Of a stretch of DNA of 46,086 nt, positions 5,823 to 11,509 are shown piece after piece. The position numbers and the translations under genes were made by a program. The stretch is from the NCBI GenBank assembly GCA_001785735.1, contig MFUP01000008.1, positions 1 through 46,086 of the forward strand, written 5' to 3'. Numbering within the stretch: the first letter of the stretch is position 1; every line of letters starts with the position of its first letter. Under the pieces are notes generated by a model. The model was not told the DNA's origin and ran no database searches. It was given only the letters and a program-made list of their open reading frames with translations. Origin of the DNA: Candidatus Nomurabacteria bacterium RIFCSPLOWO2_01_FULL_33_24. Its GTDB lineage: Bacteria; Patescibacteriota; Minisyncoccia; Phycocordibacterales; MFUP01.

Positions 5823-7322
5823 ATGACTATTTCTAAATCGGAATATATCATGTTTCTTAAACACCCGGCTTGGCTATGGTTAAAGAAACATGACAAAGAA
5901 AAAATTCCCGAACCCAACGCTATTCTTCAAGCATTATTTGATGACGGGAAACTTTTTGAAGAATATGCTGAAAAATTGTTTCCCCACGGGGTGAAATTAG
6001 GATTTACTGGTTATGGGGATTATCTTAGTCTTCCCAAGAGAACACAAGAGTTATTGGATAAAGGCGAAAAAACAATATTCCAAGGAAGATTTGAAGCCAA
6101 TGACATAACTTGTATTGTCGATGTGCTTGACAGGGTAAAAGATAATACTTTTGATCTCTATGAAATTAAATCAAGCACTAAAGCTAAAATAGATCACGAA
6201 CATGATCTTGCTTTTCAAGTTATTGTTCTTGAAAAAAGAGGATTGAAAATAAGAAATATTTCGGTTATTCATGTAAATAATGAGTACCAAAGAGACGGGA
6301 AGATTGATGTCAAACAACTCACTACCATCACAAATCTAAATGAAGAAGTGAGAGAAAAAATAGAAATTACTAAGGAAAAAATAAAAATGGCTCACGAAAT
6401 AGTAGCTCAAAAAGAAATGCCTGATCCCTCTCCGCGTTATGTTGGATTAGGAGCTTTAAAAGATTGGATGGAAATATATGAAATAATCAAAGGTAAACCA
6501 GAGAAATATAGCATTTATAATTTATGTTCCCCGGGAGTTAAGCGTCTTGGAGAATTAGAAGATTTGGGAGTCAAACTAATATCTGATATTCCAGATGATT
6601 TTAATCTTACTATTAAACAGCAAAGACAAACAATGGTCACCAAGAACGGATCCCGTCATCTTGAAAAAGAAAGTATTAAATCTTTTCTTAATGAGTTAAA
6701 ATACCCTCTTTATTTTTTGGATTACGAAACTTTTTCAGGAGTGATACCAGCCTTTGATGGGATCAGACCATATCAACAAATACCATTTCAATACTCTCTC
6801 CATATTTTAAGAAGCCCCGAAGCAGAATTAGAACATAAAGAATATTTACATACTGAAAATACTAATCCAATCAAACCACTAGTAGAACAATTAAAAAAAG
6901 ATATTGGAACAAAGGGGTCAATTTTGGTTTGGTATCAAGTTTTTGAAAAAGGACGAAACAAAGAAATGGGAGAGATGTTTCCAGTATATAAAGATTTTCT
7001 TACAGAGATAAATGAGAGAATTGTTGATTTAATGATTCCTTTTGCCGATGGTTGGTTTTGTGATAAGGAATTTTTTGGGAGCGCTTCCATTAAAAAAGTG
7101 CTTCCTGTAATTATTCCTAATTTATCTTATCAAGAGCTTGATATTCAAGAAGGAAATACGGCTCAACGAAAATGGATGGAGACAATAATTGATGGGAAAA
7201 ATAGTGATCTAAAAGAAAAAATTATGAATAATCTTATTGAATATTGTAAATTGGACACTTTAGCCATGTCAGAAATTTTTAAATATCTTCACAACTTGAT
7301 TGAGGAGGGAGGTATGATATAA
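5823..7322 (+). CDS. DUF2779-domain protein (RecB/Cas4-like nuclease N-term + RNase H-like C-term)
   Basis: ISKSEY...WLWL, DVL...YEIKSST, HDLAFQ, YFLDYET, PYQQIPFQYSLH, SIKKVLP and YCKLDT motifs. Confidence 0.85.
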   Translation: MTISKSEYIMFLKHPAWLWLKKHDKEKIPEPNAILQALFDDGKLFEEYAEKLFPHGVKLGFTGYGDYLSLPKRTQELLDKGEKTIFQGRFEANDITCIVDVLDRVKDNTFDLYEIKSSTKAKIDHEHDLAFQVIVLEKRGLKIRNISVIHVNNEYQRDGKIDVKQLTTITNLNEEVREKIEITKEKIKMAHEIVAQKEMPDPSPRYVGLGALKDWMEIYEIIKGKPEKYSIYNLCSPGVKRLGELEDLGVKLISDIPDDFNLTIKQQRQTMVTKNGSRHLEKESIKSFLNELKYPLYFLDYETFSGVIPAFDGIRPYQQIPFQYSLHILRSPEAELEHKEYLHTENTNPIKPLVEQLKKDIGTKGSILVWYQVFEKGRNKEMGEMFPVYKDFLTEINERIVDLMIPFADGWFCDKEFFGSASIKKVLPVIIPNLSYQELDIQEGNTAQRKWMETIIDGKNSDLKEKIMNNLIEYCKLDTLAMSEIFKYLHNLIEEGGMI

Positions 7323-7340
7323 TTTCTTTATAAATAAACA

Positions 7341-7985
7341 ATGAGCGAAATGCAATCAGTAATTCAATCCCTTGGTGCCCTCCCCTATGGTGGCATTTTT
7401 GTTTTATTTACGGTGATCAATGCGCTAATTCCTTTTCCGGAAGAGTTATTGATTATTGGGCTTGGTTACTTAGGTCAAATGGGGGCAATTAATATTTTTA
7501 TTGCTACTCCCTTGGCAATTCTTGGTTTAATTATTAGTGATGTTATTATTTTTTCTTTGATTAAAAGTGGAAATAAATATATTATTCGTCTTTCTAATAA
7601 GTTATTTGGAAACTTTGATGAAAACCAAGAATTTGTTGATAAACATATCAGAAAAATTATATTCTTCTCCCGTTTTGTTTTCGGTTTTCGTTTTATTGGG
7701 TTATTTACTGCTGGTTTTAAAAAAGTTTCTTTTAGAACATTTATTTTTTATGATCTCTCGGCCATTATTATTCTAGTTCTCTCTTTGGTATTTATTGGTG
7801 TTTATTTTCAATCTCGGTTTGAAAAGATTTTTGCTGGAATTGAAACCATAAGACACATTGGTTTTTTGGCAATCACCACTATTTTGATATTATTTTTGGG
7901 TCGAATAATTAGGCGGAAGATTTTAAAGTTTATGATAATAACAAAAAATAATAATAAAAATAATAAAATTGATGAAAATAAATAA
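7341..7985 (+). CDS. dedA: DedA family membrane protein
   Basis: PFPEE, IFFSRFVFGFR and AG..K motifs. Confidence 0.85.
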   Translation: MSEMQSVIQSLGALPYGGIFVLFTVINALIPFPEELLIIGLGYLGQMGAINIFIATPLAILGLIISDVIIFSLIKSGNKYIIRLSNKLFGNFDENQEFVDKHIRKIIFFSRFVFGFRFIGLFTAGFKKVSFRTFIFYDLSAIIILVLSLVFIGVYFQSRFEKIFAGIETIRHIGFLAITTILILFLGRIIRRKILKFMIITKNNNKNNKIDENK

Positions 7986-8010
7986 AAACCCCGCTGAGCG
8001 GGGTTTAAAA
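7984..8010. terminator. bidirectional terminator
   Basis: AAACCCCGC-TGA-GCGGGGTTT between convergent genes. Confidence 0.75.
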
Positions 8011-8016
8011 TTAGTT

Positions 8017-8607
8017 CTACTTCAAATTATTTTCCTTTTGATATTTTTTCCAAAGCGGAAGCCAATCTTTCTTGTAAACAGCTAGCAAAACTTCATCACA
8101 ATAACTTCCTCTAACAAAAAATTGTTTTTTCCTTAACCCCTCAATTTGGTAACCGCATTTTTGATTATATTTTTGACTCCTTTTATTAAAATCATAAGCG
8201 GTTGAACAAATTTTTCTTAAATTAAGAGTATTGAAGGCATAATTTAATAAAATCATTTTAGCGTCAGTTCCATAACCTTTCCCCCAATATTCTTTTTCTC
8301 CAAGACAAGCTCCGGTAAAAGCTGTTTTACTAATCCAGTTAATTCTATGTAGGCCCATTAATCCTACTAAACGAGAATCTTCCCTTGTTTCTATTGAGAG
8401 GATAACATTATCGTTTTTACCCACCTGATTGTCAAACCAGTTTTCTTCGTCCCTTATTGTTTTAGGAAAGACTGAAGAAAGATAAAAACGAACCTCTGGG
8501 TCATTAAAAAAACGAGTAAATAATTCTAAATCTGTTTCTTTTCTAATAGGGCGAAGGATAACTTTATTTCCTTCTAGGAAAATAATTTTTTCTTTTTTTT
8601 CTTTCAT
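8017..8607 (-). CDS. GNAT acetyltransferase, RimJ/RimL family
   Basis: LRPI..., YWGKGYGT, AFNTLNLRKI and N.RS.K...KCGY..EG motifs. Confidence 0.9.
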   Translation of the reverse strand: MKEKKEKIIFLEGNKVILRPIRKETDLELFTRFFNDPEVRFYLSSVFPKTIRDEENWFDNQVGKNDNVILSIETREDSRLVGLMGLHRINWISKTAFTGACLGEKEYWGKGYGTDAKMILLNYAFNTLNLRKICSTAYDFNKRSQKYNQKCGYQIEGLRKKQFFVRGSYCDEVLLAVYKKDWLPLWKKYQKENNLK

Positions 8608-8627
8608 TTTTTAATTTTTAAATGAAC

Positions 8628-8666
8628 AAAATAAAAACTGCCCAATCTTAGGGCAGTTTTTATTTT
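8628..8666 (-). terminator. attenuator terminator between leader ORF and GNAT gene
   Basis: Perfect 16-bp stem AAAATAAAAACTGCCC / GGGCAGTTTTTATTTT with a 7-nt loop, 20 nt before the GNAT start. Confidence 0.8.
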
Positions 8667-8682
8667 TAAACCAAATAACTTG

Positions 8683-8790
8683 TTAATATCTTAAGGAGTT
8701 TTGAAAAACAAAAATTGCCCAAACATTTTGGAAAGGGGAGACTATCCCATTTAAGGCAGTTATTCTTTTTTCTAATCTTTGATTTTCCAT
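8683..8790 (-). CDS. 35-aa putative leader peptide (MENQRLEKRITALNGIVSPFQNVWAIFVFQNSLRY)
   Basis: It starts just after a TTGACA(8828-8823)-17-TGnTATTAT(8805-8800) promoter and contains a near-copy of the terminator 3' arm. Confidence 0.65.
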   Translation of the reverse strand: MENQRLEKRITALNGIVSPFQNVWAIFVFQNSLRY

Positions 8791-8881
8791 AATGCTTATA
8801 TAATAACAATATACAATAAATTTGTCAAGTTTGAGATTATTTAGTTTAAAAAAGCTTGGTTTTGTTATATAATTGATTAAT

Positions 8882-9613
8882 ATGGATAAAAATAAAGGAC
8901 ATCTCCACCCCCTAACAATTATTATCCAAGATATGGTGACTATTTTTTCAGAATTAGGTTTCTCAGTAGCCTTTGGTCCAGAAATTGAGTCAGAAGAAAA
9001 TAATTTTGATTTATTAAATATTCCCAAAGACCATCCTGCTCGGGATATGTGGGACACTTTTTTTATTAAAAATGAAGAACAGAAGGTGTTAAGAACTCAC
9101 ACCTCGCCGGTTCAAATTAGATACATGAGAGGAAAACAACCCCCTTTCAGAATTATTTCTCCAGGAAAGACTTTTCGTTACGAAGCCACCGACCTTACTC
9201 ATGAAGCCCAATTTTTTCAATTAGAAGGATTAATAATTGATAAAAAAACATCTCTCGCCGAATTAAAAGGAACTTTAAATTATTTTCTTAAAAAAATATT
9301 TAACAACGAAAATATAGAAACTAGGTTTAGACCAAGTTATTTTCCATTCGTTGAACCGGGTTTTGAAGTGGATATGTCTTGTTCTCAATGTGAAAAGAAA
9401 GGATGTTCTTTTTGTAAACAGACTGGCTGGATTGAACTTCTCGGGGCAGGAATGGTTCACCCTAATGTTTTAAAAAATGTTGGCCTTGATCCAAAAAAAT
9501 ATCAAGGTTTTGCTTTTGGAGTGGGGGTTGATCGGGTAGCAATGCTTAAATATAGGATTGATGATATCCGATTATTATATCAAGGAGATTTAAGATTAGT
9601 TAATCAATTTTAA
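8882..9613 (+). CDS. pheS: phenylalanine--tRNA ligase alpha subunit (short form)
   Basis: GHLHP, HPARDMWDTF, LRTHTSPVQ, FRPSYFPFVEP and GFAFGVGVDR motifs; lacks the N-terminal coiled coil. Confidence 0.97.
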   Translation: MDKNKGHLHPLTIIIQDMVTIFSELGFSVAFGPEIESEENNFDLLNIPKDHPARDMWDTFFIKNEEQKVLRTHTSPVQIRYMRGKQPPFRIISPGKTFRYEATDLTHEAQFFQLEGLIIDKKTSLAELKGTLNYFLKKIFNNENIETRFRPSYFPFVEPGFEVDMSCSQCEKKGCSFCKQTGWIELLGAGMVHPNVLKNVGLDPKKYQGFAFGVGVDRVAMLKYRIDDIRLLYQGDLRLVNQF

Positions 9614-9614
9614 T

Positions 9615-11495
9615 ATGCGTTTTTCTTATAATTGGATTCAAAATTATTTTAGTGATAAGTTGCCTGAACCAAAAGAATTGGCAGAAATTTTGACAATGAA
9701 GTCTTTTGAGGTAGAAGAAATTATTTCTCGTTCGACAGGTCTAGGGCAAGCGAATGATGATTTTATTCTAGAGATAGATGTTTTACCAAACAGATCACAT
9801 GATTGCCTCTCCCACTATGGAATAGCCAGAGATATTTCAGTTATTTTAAACAAAAAATTAAAAGAAGACAAAACAGAAAAAAATTTAGAAAGATATAAAC
9901 TATCTAAAAGTGAATTTAAAGTTGAAGTTTTAGATAAAGATAAATGCCGAAGATATATTGGGACGGAAATTAAAAATATAAAAGTGGCTTCATCTCCAGC
10001 GTGGTTGAAAGAAAAATTAGAAATAGTTGGGCAAAGATCTATTAATAATATTGTTGATCTTGCTAATTATATAATGCTTTCATTTGGGCAACCCCTTCAT
10101 GTTTTTGATGCTGGTAAATTAAGGGGTAAAAAGATAGTTGTTCGGAGAGCTAAAAATGGAGAGAAAATGACTACTCTAGACGGAGAAGAAAAGGAGCTAA
10201 ACGACTCAGTGTTGGTTATTTCTGACGGAGATACTCCCTTAGCTATTGCGGGCATAAGGGGGGGGGTAGGGGCGGAAGTTGACGAAAACACAAGGAATAT
10301 TGTCGTGGAATCAGCTAATTTCGAGTCAGTTAATATCAGGAAAATCTCTCGGAAACTAAATCTCTTTACTGATGCTTCAAAAAGGTTTGAAAACGAAATT
10401 ACACCCGAATTAGCTCAATTAGGAATGGCTAAAGTAGTAGAATTAATTATAGATATTGCCGGAACCGAAAAAACTGAAATTATGGAAGCAATAGATATTT
10501 ATCCTAAACCAGTTTCAAATTGGCAAATAGAAATAACAACCGAGGAAATAAATAAATTACTTGGATCAAATATTTCTAAAACAGAAATAAAAAATATTTT
10601 TAGGAGATTTAATTTTGAATTTTCTGAAAAAAATAACAAGTTTGATATAAAAATTCCAAATTACCGGCTTGATTTAAAAATAAAAACAGATCTAATAGAA
10701 GAAATAGGGAGAATTTATGGTTATGAGAAAATAGAAGCTAAAATTCCTGAATCCATAAAAATTTCAGAAATAAATAAAGAGTTTTATTACACTACTAAAA
10801 TTAGAAATATTTTGGTTTCACATGGGTTTTCAGAAGTTTATACTTATTCTTTTGTGGAAAAAGGAGAAATTGAAATAAGAAATCCGCTCGCCTCTGATAA
10901 AAAATTTTTAAGAAGTAATTTAACAGAGAGATTAAATAAAAGTAATGAATTAAATAACAAAAATTTACCATTGATTGGATTAAAAAAAACTAAAATTTTT
11001 GAAATAGGAAAAGTTTTTAATAAAAATAAAGAATATCTATCTTTAGCCTTAATTGGAGATAAAAAAAAAGAAACAACAGAAAAACTCTCAGAACAATTTG
11101 GAAATAAATTTGGAATTGAAACTAATTTAACAGAGCTAATAGAAAAACTCCCAGACCCAAAATCTTATGATGATTTGAACTTAGAATTATCTGCCAAAGA
11201 AATTAAATATCAGAAAATATCTTCTTATCCATTTATTCAAAGAGATATTGCTCTTTGGGTTCCAGAGGATATTAAAATTGAAGAGACCCAAAAGTTAATA
11301 AAAGAAAACGCCGGAGAACTGTTAGTTGTTGGACCAAATCTTTTTGATGAATTTCATAAAAAGGAAAGAGTTTCTTATGCCTTTAATATGGTTTTTCAAT
11401 CTCTAGAGCGCACTCTAACTGATGAAGAAGTAGGCAAGATAATGAAAAACATAGAAGCCAAAATAGCTCAAAATAAAGGGTGGGAAGTAAGGTAA
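9615..11495 (+). CDS. pheT: phenylalanine--tRNA ligase beta subunit (no B2 OB domain)
   Basis: PNRSHDCLSHYGIARD, NNIVD..NY, GQPLHVFD, RLDL...DLIEEIGRIYGY and a C-terminal anticodon-binding domain. Confidence 0.97.
   Translation: MRFSYNWIQNYFSDKLPEPKELAEILTMKSFEVEEIISRSTGLGQANDDFILEIDVLPNRSHDCLSHYGIARDISVILNKKLKEDKTEKNLERYKLSKSEFKVEVLDKDKCRRYIGTEIKNIKVASSPAWLKEKLEIVGQRSINNIVDLANYIMLSFGQPLHVFDAGKLRGKKIVVRRAKNGEKMTTLDGEEKELNDSVLVISDGDTPLAIAGIRGGVGAEVDENTRNIVVESANFESVNIRKISRKLNLFTDASKRFENEITPELAQLGMAKVVELIIDIAGTEKTEIMEAIDIYPKPVSNWQIEITTEEINKLLGSNISKTEIKNIFRRFNFEFSEKNNKFDIKIPNYRLDLKIKTDLIEEIGRIYGYEKIEAKIPESIKISEINKEFYYTTKIRNILVSHGFSEVYTYSFVEKGEIEIRNPLASDKKFLRSNLTERLNKSNELNNKNLPLIGLKKTKIFEIGKVFNKNKEYLSLALIGDKKKETTEKLSEQFGNKFGIETNLTELIEKLPDPKSYDDLNLELSAKEIKYQKISSYPFIQRDIALWVPEDIKIEETQKLIKENAGELLVVGPNLFDEFHKKERVSYAFNMVFQSLERTLTDEEVGKIMKNIEAKIAQNKGWEVR
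9729..9752 (+). repeat. short in-frame repeat-like insertion in pheT
   Basis: CGTTCGACAGGTCTAGGGCAAGCG encodes RSTGLGQA and resembles the trmD insert at 26878-26904. Confidence 0.5.
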
Positions 11496-11509
11496 ATTAG
11501 GGATAAAAG

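Follow-up and report, generated by a model that had tools for sequence, protein, structure and literature searches.

The window, that is the whole stretch of 46,086 nucleotides that was analysed, covers positions 1 to 46,086 of contig MFUP01000008.1 and carries on its minus strand a compact succession of elements, in which a promoter is followed by a short leader ORF, a terminator and a gene for a GNAT N-acetyltransferase (Table 1). An initial annotation of this DNA had described a consensus promoter, a near-leaderless ORF of 35 aa, a 16-bp terminator and the GNAT gene, and all four were found again at these minus-strand places. The sigma-70-type promoter matches 11 of the 12 consensus positions and is the top-scoring site within 7900-9000. 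The leader ATG lies 9 nt past the -10 box, without a Shine-Dalgarno sequence, and from this spacing the mRNA is predicted to be leaderless or almost leaderless. The terminator arms (8666-8651 and 8643-8628) are complementary over 16 of 16 positions, with five G-C pairs and a 7-nt loop, and the 3' arm and tail are rich in T. The GNAT ATG (8607) stands 20 nt beyond the terminator stem; a promoter of its own in this gap, which the initial annotation had named as evidence against its interpretation, has no room there, and no promoter-like site was detected between hairpin and ATG.

Table 1. Features of the leader, the regulated gene and their immediate surroundings (positions in the window).
Feature	Position	Strand	Remarks
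Terminator 3' of the GNAT gene	7986..8006	-	
GNAT N-acetyltransferase, regulated gene	8017..8607	-	196 aa; Pfam Acetyltransf_3
Segment 4, terminator 3' arm	8628..8645	-	stem 8643-8628; ends in TTTTTATTTT, then GTTCATTT
Segment 3, terminator 5' arm	8648..8667	-	stem 8666-8651; common to antiterminator and terminator
Leader ORF, 35 codons	8683..8790	-	ATG at 8790; stop TAA 8685-8683
Segment 2, antiterminator strand	8705..8722	-	codons 23-29
Small palindrome CCAAA-ATG-TTTGG	8719..8731	-	described in the initial annotation
Segment 1, anti-antiterminator strand	8749..8770	-	ends on codons Leu13-Asn14 (TTA AAT, 8754-8749)
Sigma-70-type promoter	8800..8828	-	TTGACA 8828-8823, 17-nt spacer, TG-extended TATTAT 8805-8800
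Divergent promoter-like site for pheS	8845..8873	+	10/12 consensus matches

The terminator that follows the GNAT gene makes it a single-gene unit, and a VTT/DedA-type gene on the plus strand converges on this same point. The leader hairpin does not mark the end of a preceding gene, since the sole upstream gene, pheS, runs the opposite way. When the 398-kb assembly was scanned for a promoter, an ATG within 5-10 nt, an ORF of 15-70 codons and a terminator, the focal site was the sole match. Compared with its own genome, the 265-nt intergenic region gave just short A/T-rich matches, which rules out its being a member of a repeat family.

The regulated protein has the GNAT fold, with a match to Pfam Acetyltransf_3 at E 6.9e-25 (88.8 bits against a cut-off of 25.4). 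Its nearest solved structures are spermidine N1-acetyltransferases (SpeG; E 7e-14), and it scores 55.8 bits with the NCBIfam SpeG model NF011709, for which the equivalog cut-off is 218. Judged by these matches, the enzyme is SpeG-like, yet not SpeG. Its best relative is 64% identical, and among the genomes compared there was no second one of the same family. Records named for Patescibacteria or for one of its groups make up nearly all of the GNAT relatives and nearly all of the best 80 relatives of PheS, in agreement with the CPR origin that had been suggested from the letters alone.

The leader transcript contains four segments able to pair in alternative ways. Segment 2 had been recognised at 8720-8705 as a 14/16 copy of the terminator 3' arm; this copy, in codons W24 to F29, is confirmed within a somewhat longer stretch, 8722-8705, which is 89% identical to the 3' arm over 18 nt. 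The proposal that it pairs with the terminator 5' arm as an antiterminator also held, with an energy reaching -15.8 kcal/mol that was equalled by none of 200 shuffles, and with covariation in relatives. Segment 1 had been overlooked: its bases 8770-8751, inside the ORF, are an 85% copy of the terminator 5' arm over 20 nt and complete a trp-like 1:2 / 2:3 / 3:4 layout. The competing helix proposed in its stead, CCAAA-ATG-TTTGG, does exist at 8731-8719, but it amounts to only -1.3 kcal/mol and is absent from the minimum-energy folds, so that the competitor of the antiterminator is segment 1 and not the palindrome.

Three duplexes of increasing strength result from this arrangement in the focal leader, namely 1:2 (-8.4 to -10.3 kcal/mol), 2:3 (-14.4 to -15.8 kcal/mol) and 3:4 (-22.0 kcal/mol). 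The leader folds with a z of -2.6 relative to dinucleotide shuffles, and segment 1 is paired with segment 2 in the minimum-energy fold of the full-length leader. Folding of the nascent transcript passes through all three helices: 1:2 gives way to 2:3 when segment 3 has been made, and 2:3 in turn to 1:2 together with 3:4 on completion of segment 4. Equilibrium folding of the focal leader with a ribosome mask does not, however, tell the ON and OFF states apart. As long as segment 4 has not been made, 2:3 has the lowest energy whether or not the mask is applied; from then on, 3:4 always has. As equilibrium folds fail to separate the two states, the switch must be kinetic.

The same succession of elements was found upstream of GNAT orthologues. 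In a first set, 84 loci had 150 nt or more of upstream sequence; 71 came from metagenomes, 12 from genomes of the order, and one was the focal locus. A terminator-like hairpin lies at most 130 nt from the GNAT start in 50 of them, and in 44 of these 50 an ORF ends 8-40 nt before the hairpin; the other 34 orthologues are without the device. Among 79 usable GNAT loci from named genomes, the hairpin is present in 62 and the complete hairpin and ORF layout in 60, nearly all from Patescibacteria, while 17 are without the device. Conservation of the arrangement upstream of orthologues, which the initial annotation had named as a check, is thereby borne out. Of 101 distinct hairpin loci, 94 have a leader ORF of 25 codons or more whose end falls 8-40 nt ahead of the terminator; the number expected from dinucleotide shuffles is 10.5, and 9 are seen on the reverse complement. 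L175 and L181, which have a hairpin but lack this ORF, were left out of the count. Of 26 metagenome leaders with a recognisable promoter, 23 have their ATG 6-9 nt past the -10 box. All these counts depend on our own criteria for hairpin, ORF and promoter, and the related sequences they are drawn from are not independent samples.

The peptide itself left a fainter trace. It has no match in Pfam or NCBIfam. The median pN/pS of the leaders is 0.61 in 43 pairs, with values below 1 in 40 of the 43, which hints weakly at selection on the peptide, and the entropies at codon positions 1, 2 and 3 (25.2, 24.6 and 26.4) give just a weak coding signal.

At the level of RNA, covariation points to the helices themselves. 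In 31 aligned leaders, 88.9% of the cells of the antiterminator are paired and 9 of its 14 pairs have changed on both sides; none of 500 shuffles reaches the observed value, and slid registers give 37-51%. The terminator of the same 31 leaders is paired in 94% of cells, with double changes at 7 of 13 pairs. When the 5' arm of each leader is matched with ORF ends, its own ORF end does better than all but 5% of those from unrelated leaders in 41 of 93 cases. Helix 1:2 has moderate support across the family: 72.8% of cells are paired, a value reached by 22 of 500 shuffles, 5 of 7 pairs are double-changed, and 12 of 57 leaders fall in the top 5% of a permutation test. In the relatives, the midpoint of the partner of segment 2 lies at a median distance of 24 nt from the ATG. 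The focal leader could be closely compared with three others (L025, L107 and L108), and these nearest leaders form the same three helices with compensatory changes. AAUA and the terminator loop GRAYRRA are conserved at the nucleotide level, and the region separating segments 1 and 2 is of variable sequence and length.

The device is not confined to acetyltransferase genes. A search for promoter plus motif located it before an MFS transporter, in whose family 38 of 53 usable loci carry the hairpin and 37 of 53 the full device. This search of contigs gives no frequency of the device, because it rests on the matches listed, which were mostly chance hits in other phyla. A covariance model of the 3' half of the device (R1), built from the seed alignment, gave 21 strong matches in 151 genomes of the order, every one of them before a GNAT or an MFS gene: GNAT orthologues follow 11 of the matches and MFS genes the other 10, among the latter members of two MFS families absent from the seed alignment. 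On these comparisons, the device is a family across the phylum Patescibacteria and not a one-off, and its predicted targets are one acetyltransferase family and three drug-efflux-like families of MFS transporters. The matches of the MFS and GNAT proteins to named resistance or SpeG families were all far under the curated cut-offs. The focal leader is an outlier of the family: its Leu-Asn pair occupies codons 13-14 and not 8-10, its terminator is of a different sequence type from the R1 seed alignment, and R1 had no match in the focal genome. An MFS gene was not found in this genome, whose assembly is 67% complete.

Taken as a whole, the device is very probably a ribosome-mediated (leader-peptide) transcription attenuator, a known kind of regulator. 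Three lines of evidence argue for this reading: the conservation of the ORF, the covariation of antiterminator and terminator, and the presence of the device before both GNAT and MFS genes. They also lend support to the earlier proposal that stalling early in the leader would switch the acetyltransferase on. The layout and its conservation are observed; from them we infer the positions of the ribosome and the outcome as follows. The 5' end of the transcript would coincide with the ATG at 8790 or lie just ahead of it, so that the ribosome would load on the RNA 5' end. In the OFF state, the lead ribosome would keep up with RNA polymerase, cross segment 2 and arrive at the stop codon; with segment 2 occupied or blocked, 3:4 would form and transcription would end 20 nt before the GNAT start. 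In the ON state, a ribosome held on codons 1 to 10-15 would sit atop segment 1 and leave segment 2 free to pair with the newly made segment 3, whereupon no terminator would form and the polymerase would enter the GNAT gene. This scheme assumes that intrinsic terminators are functional in Patescibacteria.

Several natural triggers could hold the ribosome in such a position. The most likely, with about an even chance of being the right one, would be a compound that slows or arrests elongation, for example an antibiotic from neighbouring or host bacteria; it is favoured because the device controls a SpeG-like acetyltransferase together with three drug-efflux-like MFS families. Slow decoding of a conserved AAU (Asn) codon when charged tRNA-Asn is short would be a less probable trigger, and an excess of polyamine or of another cation a rather improbable one. 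The three are compatible with one another and need not be mutually exclusive.

The AAU codon deserves particular attention. Of 95 distinct GNAT leaders, 68 have Asn as their ninth or tenth residue, and the motif [Q/K]-[M/L]-N is found at residues 7-10 in 68 of the 95; the focal leader carries it at residues 12-14. Around the Asn codon, Q or K is kept at -2, M or L at -1 and a first-base A at +1. Over GNAT and MFS leaders, the codon at 9/10 is AAT 94 times and AAC once, whereas AAT and AAC stand at 414:397 within the GNAT genes, and at 143:68 when the remaining Asn codons of the leaders are counted. The motif can be explained in part by RNA pairing of TGAAT with ATTCA. Pairing as its full cause was rejected, as the complement beside segment 2 is significant in only 27 of the 95 leaders; the idea that the Met/Leu codon is the true start was likewise discarded, since TTA, CTA, TTT and ATT are also found there. 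We advance, as a tentative proposal, that the AAU at 9/10 is a site of programmed arrest that depends either on a compound or on tRNA, and that the copies of the device before the SpeG-like GNAT and three or more MFS pump families together make up a minimal regulon for inducible resistance or detoxification across Patescibacteria.

The same layout could instead report the supply of charged tRNA-Asn, the ribosome waiting at the AAU over segment 1 and at nearby Asn codons of what would then be an 'Asn leader', by analogy with the Ala-rich upstream ORF of whiB7. The near-invariance of AAT at 9/10 would fit such a function, and so would the enrichment of Asn, the most enriched residue at positions 2-15 (15.1% against 4.7%) and present there at least once in 121 of 124 leaders. 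The upstream ORF of whiB7 is likewise described as sensing a shortage of whichever amino acids it encodes (10.1101/2023.06.02.543512). However, there is no run of Asn codons: 40 of the 124 leaders have a single Asn in residues 2-15, and those of the focal leader are scattered at residues 3, 14, 22 and 31. A classical amino-acid attenuator combines a codon run with targets in biosynthesis or charging of the amino acid, and here the targets are acetyltransferases and efflux-type transporters of the MFS without an evident role in Asn supply. The conserved neighbours of the codon would be needless for a plain hungry codon, and part of the motif is accounted for by TGAAT/ATTCA pairing. We therefore hold this version to be doubtful, if worth bearing in mind.

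A second variant dispenses with the stall site altogether. The leader would be a general sensor of transcription-translation coupling, in which any loss of leader translation, failed initiation included, frees segment 2. The relative strength of the duplexes speaks for it: as 1:2 is much weaker than 2:3 (-8.4 against -15.8 kcal/mol), a leader without translation might read through and not terminate, and the gene would thus be on whenever translation falters. In keeping with this, 2:3 is the minimum-energy fold of the ribosome-free transcript once segment 3 is made, and the support for helix 1:2 is moderate. The toiL leader, moreover, is reported to answer at least five antibiotic classes that stall ribosomes at different codons (PMC12121999). 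Yet a near-invariant AAU at a fixed distance from the start, with conserved neighbours, points to a defined pause or arrest point, and segment 1 exists and in part covaries with segment 2. On balance, a sensor without a specific stall site appears unlikely.

A riboswitch or protein-binding leader, in which a ligand or protein would pick between antiterminator and terminator and the ORF would be incidental, is very unlikely. The choice between terminator and antiterminator is admittedly the usual expression platform of riboswitches, and the conserved AAUA and loop GRAYRRA could form a binding site. Nevertheless, 94 of 101 loci retain the ORF where 10.5 would be expected to, its ATG is fixed at the predicted transcript 5' end, and no conserved aptamer-like helices occur between segments 1 and 2. 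Rfam gave no family on the leaders either, whether in the window at gathering scores, where a tRNA alone was matched, or in 17 leader-bearing loci at E up to 1. Least probable of all is an independent small gene or small RNA that has a promoter and a terminator to itself, with the GNAT expressed separately or by leakage: promoter, 35-codon ORF and strong terminator do form a complete unit of about 165 nt, and the low pN/pS would suit a small gene, but this gives no reason for the covariation between the ORF 3' end and the terminator 5' arm, the unit always precedes one of few gene families, its peptide resembles no Pfam or NCBIfam family and the GNAT gene has neither room nor a match for a promoter after the hairpin.

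Patescibacteria (CPR) represent a large share of bacterial diversity. To our knowledge, almost nothing is known of gene regulation in this group, which is not known to have much regulatory machinery. Saccharibacteria that grow in culture and are amenable to genetics do exist. The ribosome-mediated attenuator would add to this barely studied phylum a cis-regulatory device that comparison supports strongly and whose targets are defined. Its mechanism is textbook; what makes it worth attention is its lineage, its regulon and the peculiar fixed AAU codon. On this reading, such ultra-small bacteria would monitor difficulties at their own ribosomes and respond to them with acetylation and export, which would fit a life attached to or among antibiotic-producing bacteria. 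Should the AAU prove to be the arrest site of such a regulon, this would be the first inducible stress response defined for Patescibacteria. Identifying the trigger would also hint at the substrates of the uncharacterised GNAT and MFS proteins. A search of openly accessible main texts found no published description of this attenuator family.

Comparisons with known systems place the device among leader-peptide regulators while setting it apart from each of them. In the leaders of erm, cat and cml genes, a drug-dependent arrest motif lies about 5-10 residues from the N-terminus. In the leaders described here, the motif [Q/K]-[M/L]-N would be the candidate for such a motif.

Among the genes of the whiB7 regulon, in mycobacteria and other actinobacteria, are eis, which codes for an acetyltransferase of the GNAT type, and tap, which codes for an MFS pump; both kinds of gene are also those that follow the device. 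In the whiB7 leader, efficient translation of the upstream ORF is described as leading to a Rho-independent terminator, and translation stress as leading to an antiterminator and read-through (bioRxiv 10.1101/2023.06.02.543512); a translated upstream ORF and a choice between terminator and antiterminator are also what we propose for the device. On other aspects the two differ. One attenuator acts there on one transcription factor, whereas the GNAT and MFS genes considered here are each preceded by a separate copy. The ORF of whiB7 is rich in Ala, the leaders of the device in Asn with one fixed AAU, and the two systems share neither sequence similarity nor phylum.

The toiL leader of the Escherichia coli topAI-yjhQ operon resembles the device in using a short upstream ORF to sense several classes of ribosome-targeting antibiotics by stalling (PMC12121999). 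It differs in its outcome: the ribosome-binding site is occluded and Rho ends transcription within the gene, with no intrinsic terminator in the leader.

The four-segment 1:2 / 2:3 / 3:4 logic is shared with the trpL type of E. coli and with IlvL of the Corynebacterium glutamicum ilvBNC operon. IlvL is described as leaderless, its transcription starting one nucleotide from the start codon, and as having an anti-antiterminator for its first hairpin (PMC11857589). Both rely on runs of regulatory codons before genes for biosynthesis of the same amino acid, whereas the device has no run and its targets resemble genes of detoxification and export.

In Bacillus subtilis, antibiotic stalling leads to read-through into resistance genes at bmrCD (with its leader bmrB), vmlR, tlrB and ytbDE (PMC13689557). 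As outlined in that source, anti-antiterminator, antiterminator and terminator stem-loops are read there by the ribosome on the leader peptide, as we propose here. For vmlR and tlrB, it adds two distinguishing features, a stem-loop that holds the Shine-Dalgarno sequence and pausing that depends on NusG. The patescibacterial device, by contrast, would start its leader at the 5' end of the transcript, and it precedes SpeG-like GNAT and MFS pump genes in Patescibacteria.

The leader preceding the GNAT gene on the minus strand joins a consensus promoter, a short reading frame and a terminator hairpin (see the table). A re-reading of the sequence confirmed every coordinate of the elements described in the initial annotation. 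The leader promoter is the highest-scoring promoter-like site in 7900-9000, and the same search found none within or 3' of the hairpin, before GNAT. The leader ATG lies 9 nt past the -10 box, with no Shine-Dalgarno sequence before it. The leader stop codon is separated from the hairpin by 16 nt, the terminator 3' arm ends in TTTTTATTTT and the GNAT ATG (8607) stands 20 nt past the stem. The upstream neighbour pheS is divergent, with a promoter-like site of its own, and because it is transcribed in the opposite direction the hairpin is not the end of that gene.

Features of the leader and of the GNAT transcription unit
Feature	Position	Strand	Description
Leader promoter	TTGACA 8828-8823; TG-extended TATTAT 8805-8800	-	17-nt spacer; 11/12 consensus positions
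Leader ORF	ATG 8790; stop 8685-8683	-	35 codons, from ORF reading
Segment 1	8770-8751	-	85% copy of terminator 5' arm
Segment 2	8722-8705	-	89% copy of terminator 3' arm
Segments 3 and 4 (terminator hairpin)	8666-8651 and 8643-8628	-	two terminator arms of 16 nt, fully complementary; 7-nt loop
Terminator 3' of GNAT	8006-7986	-	from terminator search

The regulated gene encodes a 196-aa protein with a Pfam Acetyltransf_3 domain (E 6.9e-25), and the terminator directly after it makes it a single-gene unit. The best NCBIfam model is SpeG (55.8 bits vs a cut-off of 218) and, among solved structures, spermidine N1-acetyltransferases come closest (E 7e-14): the protein is SpeG-like, yet it is no SpeG by the curated cut-off. 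The assembly (398 kb, 16 contigs, about 67% complete) is the only one from its family in the set of genomes compared. The assignment to a CPR bacterium agrees with the record titles, since nearly all of the best 80 PheS relatives, and of the GNAT relatives, are titled Patescibacteria, Parcubacteria, Paceibacterota, Saccharibacteria or similar. PheS itself is short (243 aa from the ATG at 8882; Pfam matches the class II core domain only) and also apparently leaderless, with a TATAAT ending at 8873 on the plus strand (window 8845-8884, 8882-9613). A script scan of the genome returned 12 sites where a promoter is followed within 5-10 nt by an ATG that opens an ORF of 80 codons or more, and leaderless starts may therefore be frequent there. 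At 5823-7322 (+) an isolated gene encodes a protein of 499 aa, which contains a DUF2779 domain (E 2.6e-42) and weakly matches a Cas4-type nuclease; no CRISPR genes were found near it among the ORFs of 6000-11500.

A repeat search of the leader revealed four related segments rather than three, the one overlooked at first being the copy of the terminator 5' arm (segment 1). Their arrangement is the classical layout of alternative 1:2, 2:3 and 3:4 helices, with predicted duplex energies of -8.4, -15.8 and -22.0 kcal/mol, respectively. When the growing transcript is folded, 1:2 forms first, 2:3 appears after segment 3, and 1:2 together with 3:4 after segment 4. The helix CCAAA-ATG-TTTGG, initially proposed as the competitor of the antiterminator, is worth -1.3 kcal/mol and goes unused in these folds. 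Equilibrium folds masked by a ribosome fail to distinguish read-through (ON) from termination (OFF), and the decision must thus be kinetic, as in other attenuators.

The arrangement is widely conserved before GNAT orthologues. A metagenome set of 80 GNAT loci (36-65% identity to the window's protein) was pooled with those from genomes of the window's order and the window's own, giving 84 loci with at least 150 nt upstream. In 50 of them a terminator-like hairpin lies 130 nt or less from the start of GNAT, and 44 of the 50 carry an ORF of 25 codons or more that begins with ATG and ends 8-40 nt before the 5' arm, a few of these loci appearing false (L026, L085, L013). The promoter pattern matched 26 of the 44 leaders, with the ATG 6-9 nt past the -10 box in 23. 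Among 80 further GNAT loci from species-representative genomes, nearly all Patescibacteria, hairpin and ORF occur together in 60, bearing out the conservation that the initial annotation had proposed to check; 17 have no hairpin, two a hairpin without ORF and one is too short. Leaving out those two, 94 of 101 distinct hairpin loci have an ORF in the expected position, against 10.5 predicted from dinucleotide shuffles and 9 on the reverse complement.

Sequence variation in the relatives follows the helices. After removal of L026 and L085, each terminator 5' arm was paired with the end of its own ORF and with unrelated leaders in a permutation test; the own leader ranked in the best 5% for 41 of 93 arms and in the best 10% for 53 (mean pairing energy -11.5 vs -7.8 kcal/mol). 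MAFFT was used to align 31 leaders sharing the commonest terminator type (14 ahead of GNAT and 17 ahead of MFS genes). In this alignment 88.9% of antiterminator cells are paired and 9/14 pairs show double-sided changes; none of 500 shuffles was as good, and slid registers reached 37-51%. For the terminator, 94% of cells are paired, with double changes in 7/13 pairs. One segment 3 column alternates between G and A, its partners in segments 2 and 4 alternating along. Support for 1:2 among the relatives is moderate only; the leaders closest to that of the window (L025, L107, L108) have the same three helices with compensatory changes. This covariation indicates that the alternative helices are under selection. 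The loop of the same terminator type is also conserved across GNAT and MFS leaders (GRAYRRA closed by GCT...AGC, columns 193-200 of the leader alignment A3, for example in loci L051, L061, L144 and L313-L355); as a plain terminator needs no such conservation, the loop may act as a signal for binding or pausing.

Counted from the window's leader ATG, segment 1 spans nt 21-42, its 3' end holding Leu-Asn at codons 13-14 (nt 37-42), segment 2 nt 69-86, the stop nt 106-108 and segment 3 nt 124-143. In the relatives, the midpoint of segment 2's partner lies at a median of 24 nt from the ATG, and the stop codon 9-21 nt (quartiles) past the end of segment 2 and, in most leaders, 14-30 nt ahead of the terminator arm. 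It follows from this geometry that a ribosome near codon 9-14 would cover segment 1, and that one at the stop would cover or block segment 2, leaving segment 3 free. The leader is probably a ribosome-mediated transcription attenuator, one that would be switched ON by a lead ribosome stalled over segment 1. The initial proposal, in which early stalling frees the antiterminator, is supported, with the corrections that there are four segments and that the competing helix is provided by segment 1.

The device extends to other genes. A search pattern of promoter, ATG and conserved leader codons led to an MFS transporter of 392 aa that is preceded, in three Patescibacteria, by the same leader and terminator, and the device is present at 37 of 53 usable loci of this first MFS family. 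R1, a covariance model running from segment 2 through the terminator, gave 21 matches (E up to 1.3e-4) over 151 genomes of the window's order: 11 precede GNAT orthologues and 10 precede MFS genes (seven of a second family, two of a third, one of the first), the second and third families being absent from the seed. At least one of the GNAT matches (L363) repeats a seed sequence exactly. The nine weaker loci inspected (E 8e-4 to 8e-3) carry no such leader, and seven sit where a long reading frame ends. The best models for the MFS proteins are drug-efflux ones (TetA(P), Tet(40), HP1165, multidrug), all far under cut-offs. The shared leaders suggest that GNAT and MFS targets form a regulon.

Other loci came to light in these searches. 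Two further Patescibacteria leaders (L254:1536-2467 (+) and L239:1535-1670 (+)) share promoter, Asn-9 motif and terminator and may be regulon members; one leads into a 254-aa protein that matches neither Pfam nor NCBIfam models, and the other is followed by no ORF within 160 nt. Near-identical leader peptides of 43-44 residues precede unrelated genes of different genomes (L152, GNAT; L321, MFS), and the entire module seems to move, or to be copied, from one target to another. On one Patescibacteria contig, the paralogous genes L188 and L189 (about 155 codons, 1064 nt apart) each have an ATG a few nt past the -10 box of a consensus promoter, and their N-termini fit the pattern by chance. In Lactovum miscens (L211:1538-1720 (+)), a 282-aa lipoprotein resembling a solute-binding protein is preceded by a leader of 25 codons, five of which encode Cys and lie close to its end, and then a terminator-like hairpin; this may be an attenuator that senses cysteine, separate from this family.

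Among the candidate triggers, an elongation inhibitor is the best match to the regulon. The supply of Asn-tRNA also fits, on account of a fixed AAU codon. Asn, the most enriched residue at leader positions 2-15 (3.2-fold), occupies residue 9 or 10 in 68 of 95 distinct GNAT leaders; the residue two before it is Q or K, the one just before it M or L, and the codon after it mostly begins with A. Over GNAT and MFS leaders, this Asn is encoded by AAT 94 times and by AAC once; AAT:AAC is 414:397 in GNAT genes and, for Asn elsewhere in the leaders, 143:68. Pairing of TGAAT with ATTCA beside segment 2, significant in only 27 of 95 leaders, accounts for the bias in part. Selection on the leader peptide is weak overall (median pN/pS 0.61). 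Polyamines fit the SpeG likeness of the enzyme, and the weakness of the 1:2 helix would suit a plain coupling sensor. A stand-alone small gene is unlikely, as are a riboswitch or protein-binding leader and, beside the shuffled controls, a layout arisen by chance.

Neither the literature searched nor Rfam yielded a description of the GNAT/MFS leaders, which appear to be a new family with a proposed mechanism of a known kind; their interest lies in lineage, regulon and fixed AAU codon. The proposed mechanism is that of the whiB7 upstream ORF (10.1101/2023.06.02.543512), the bmrCD, vmlR, tlrB and ytbDE attenuators of B. subtilis (PMC13689557) and the leaderless IlvL attenuator of C. glutamicum (PMC11857589), and the toiL upstream ORF (PMC12121999) is a looser analogue.
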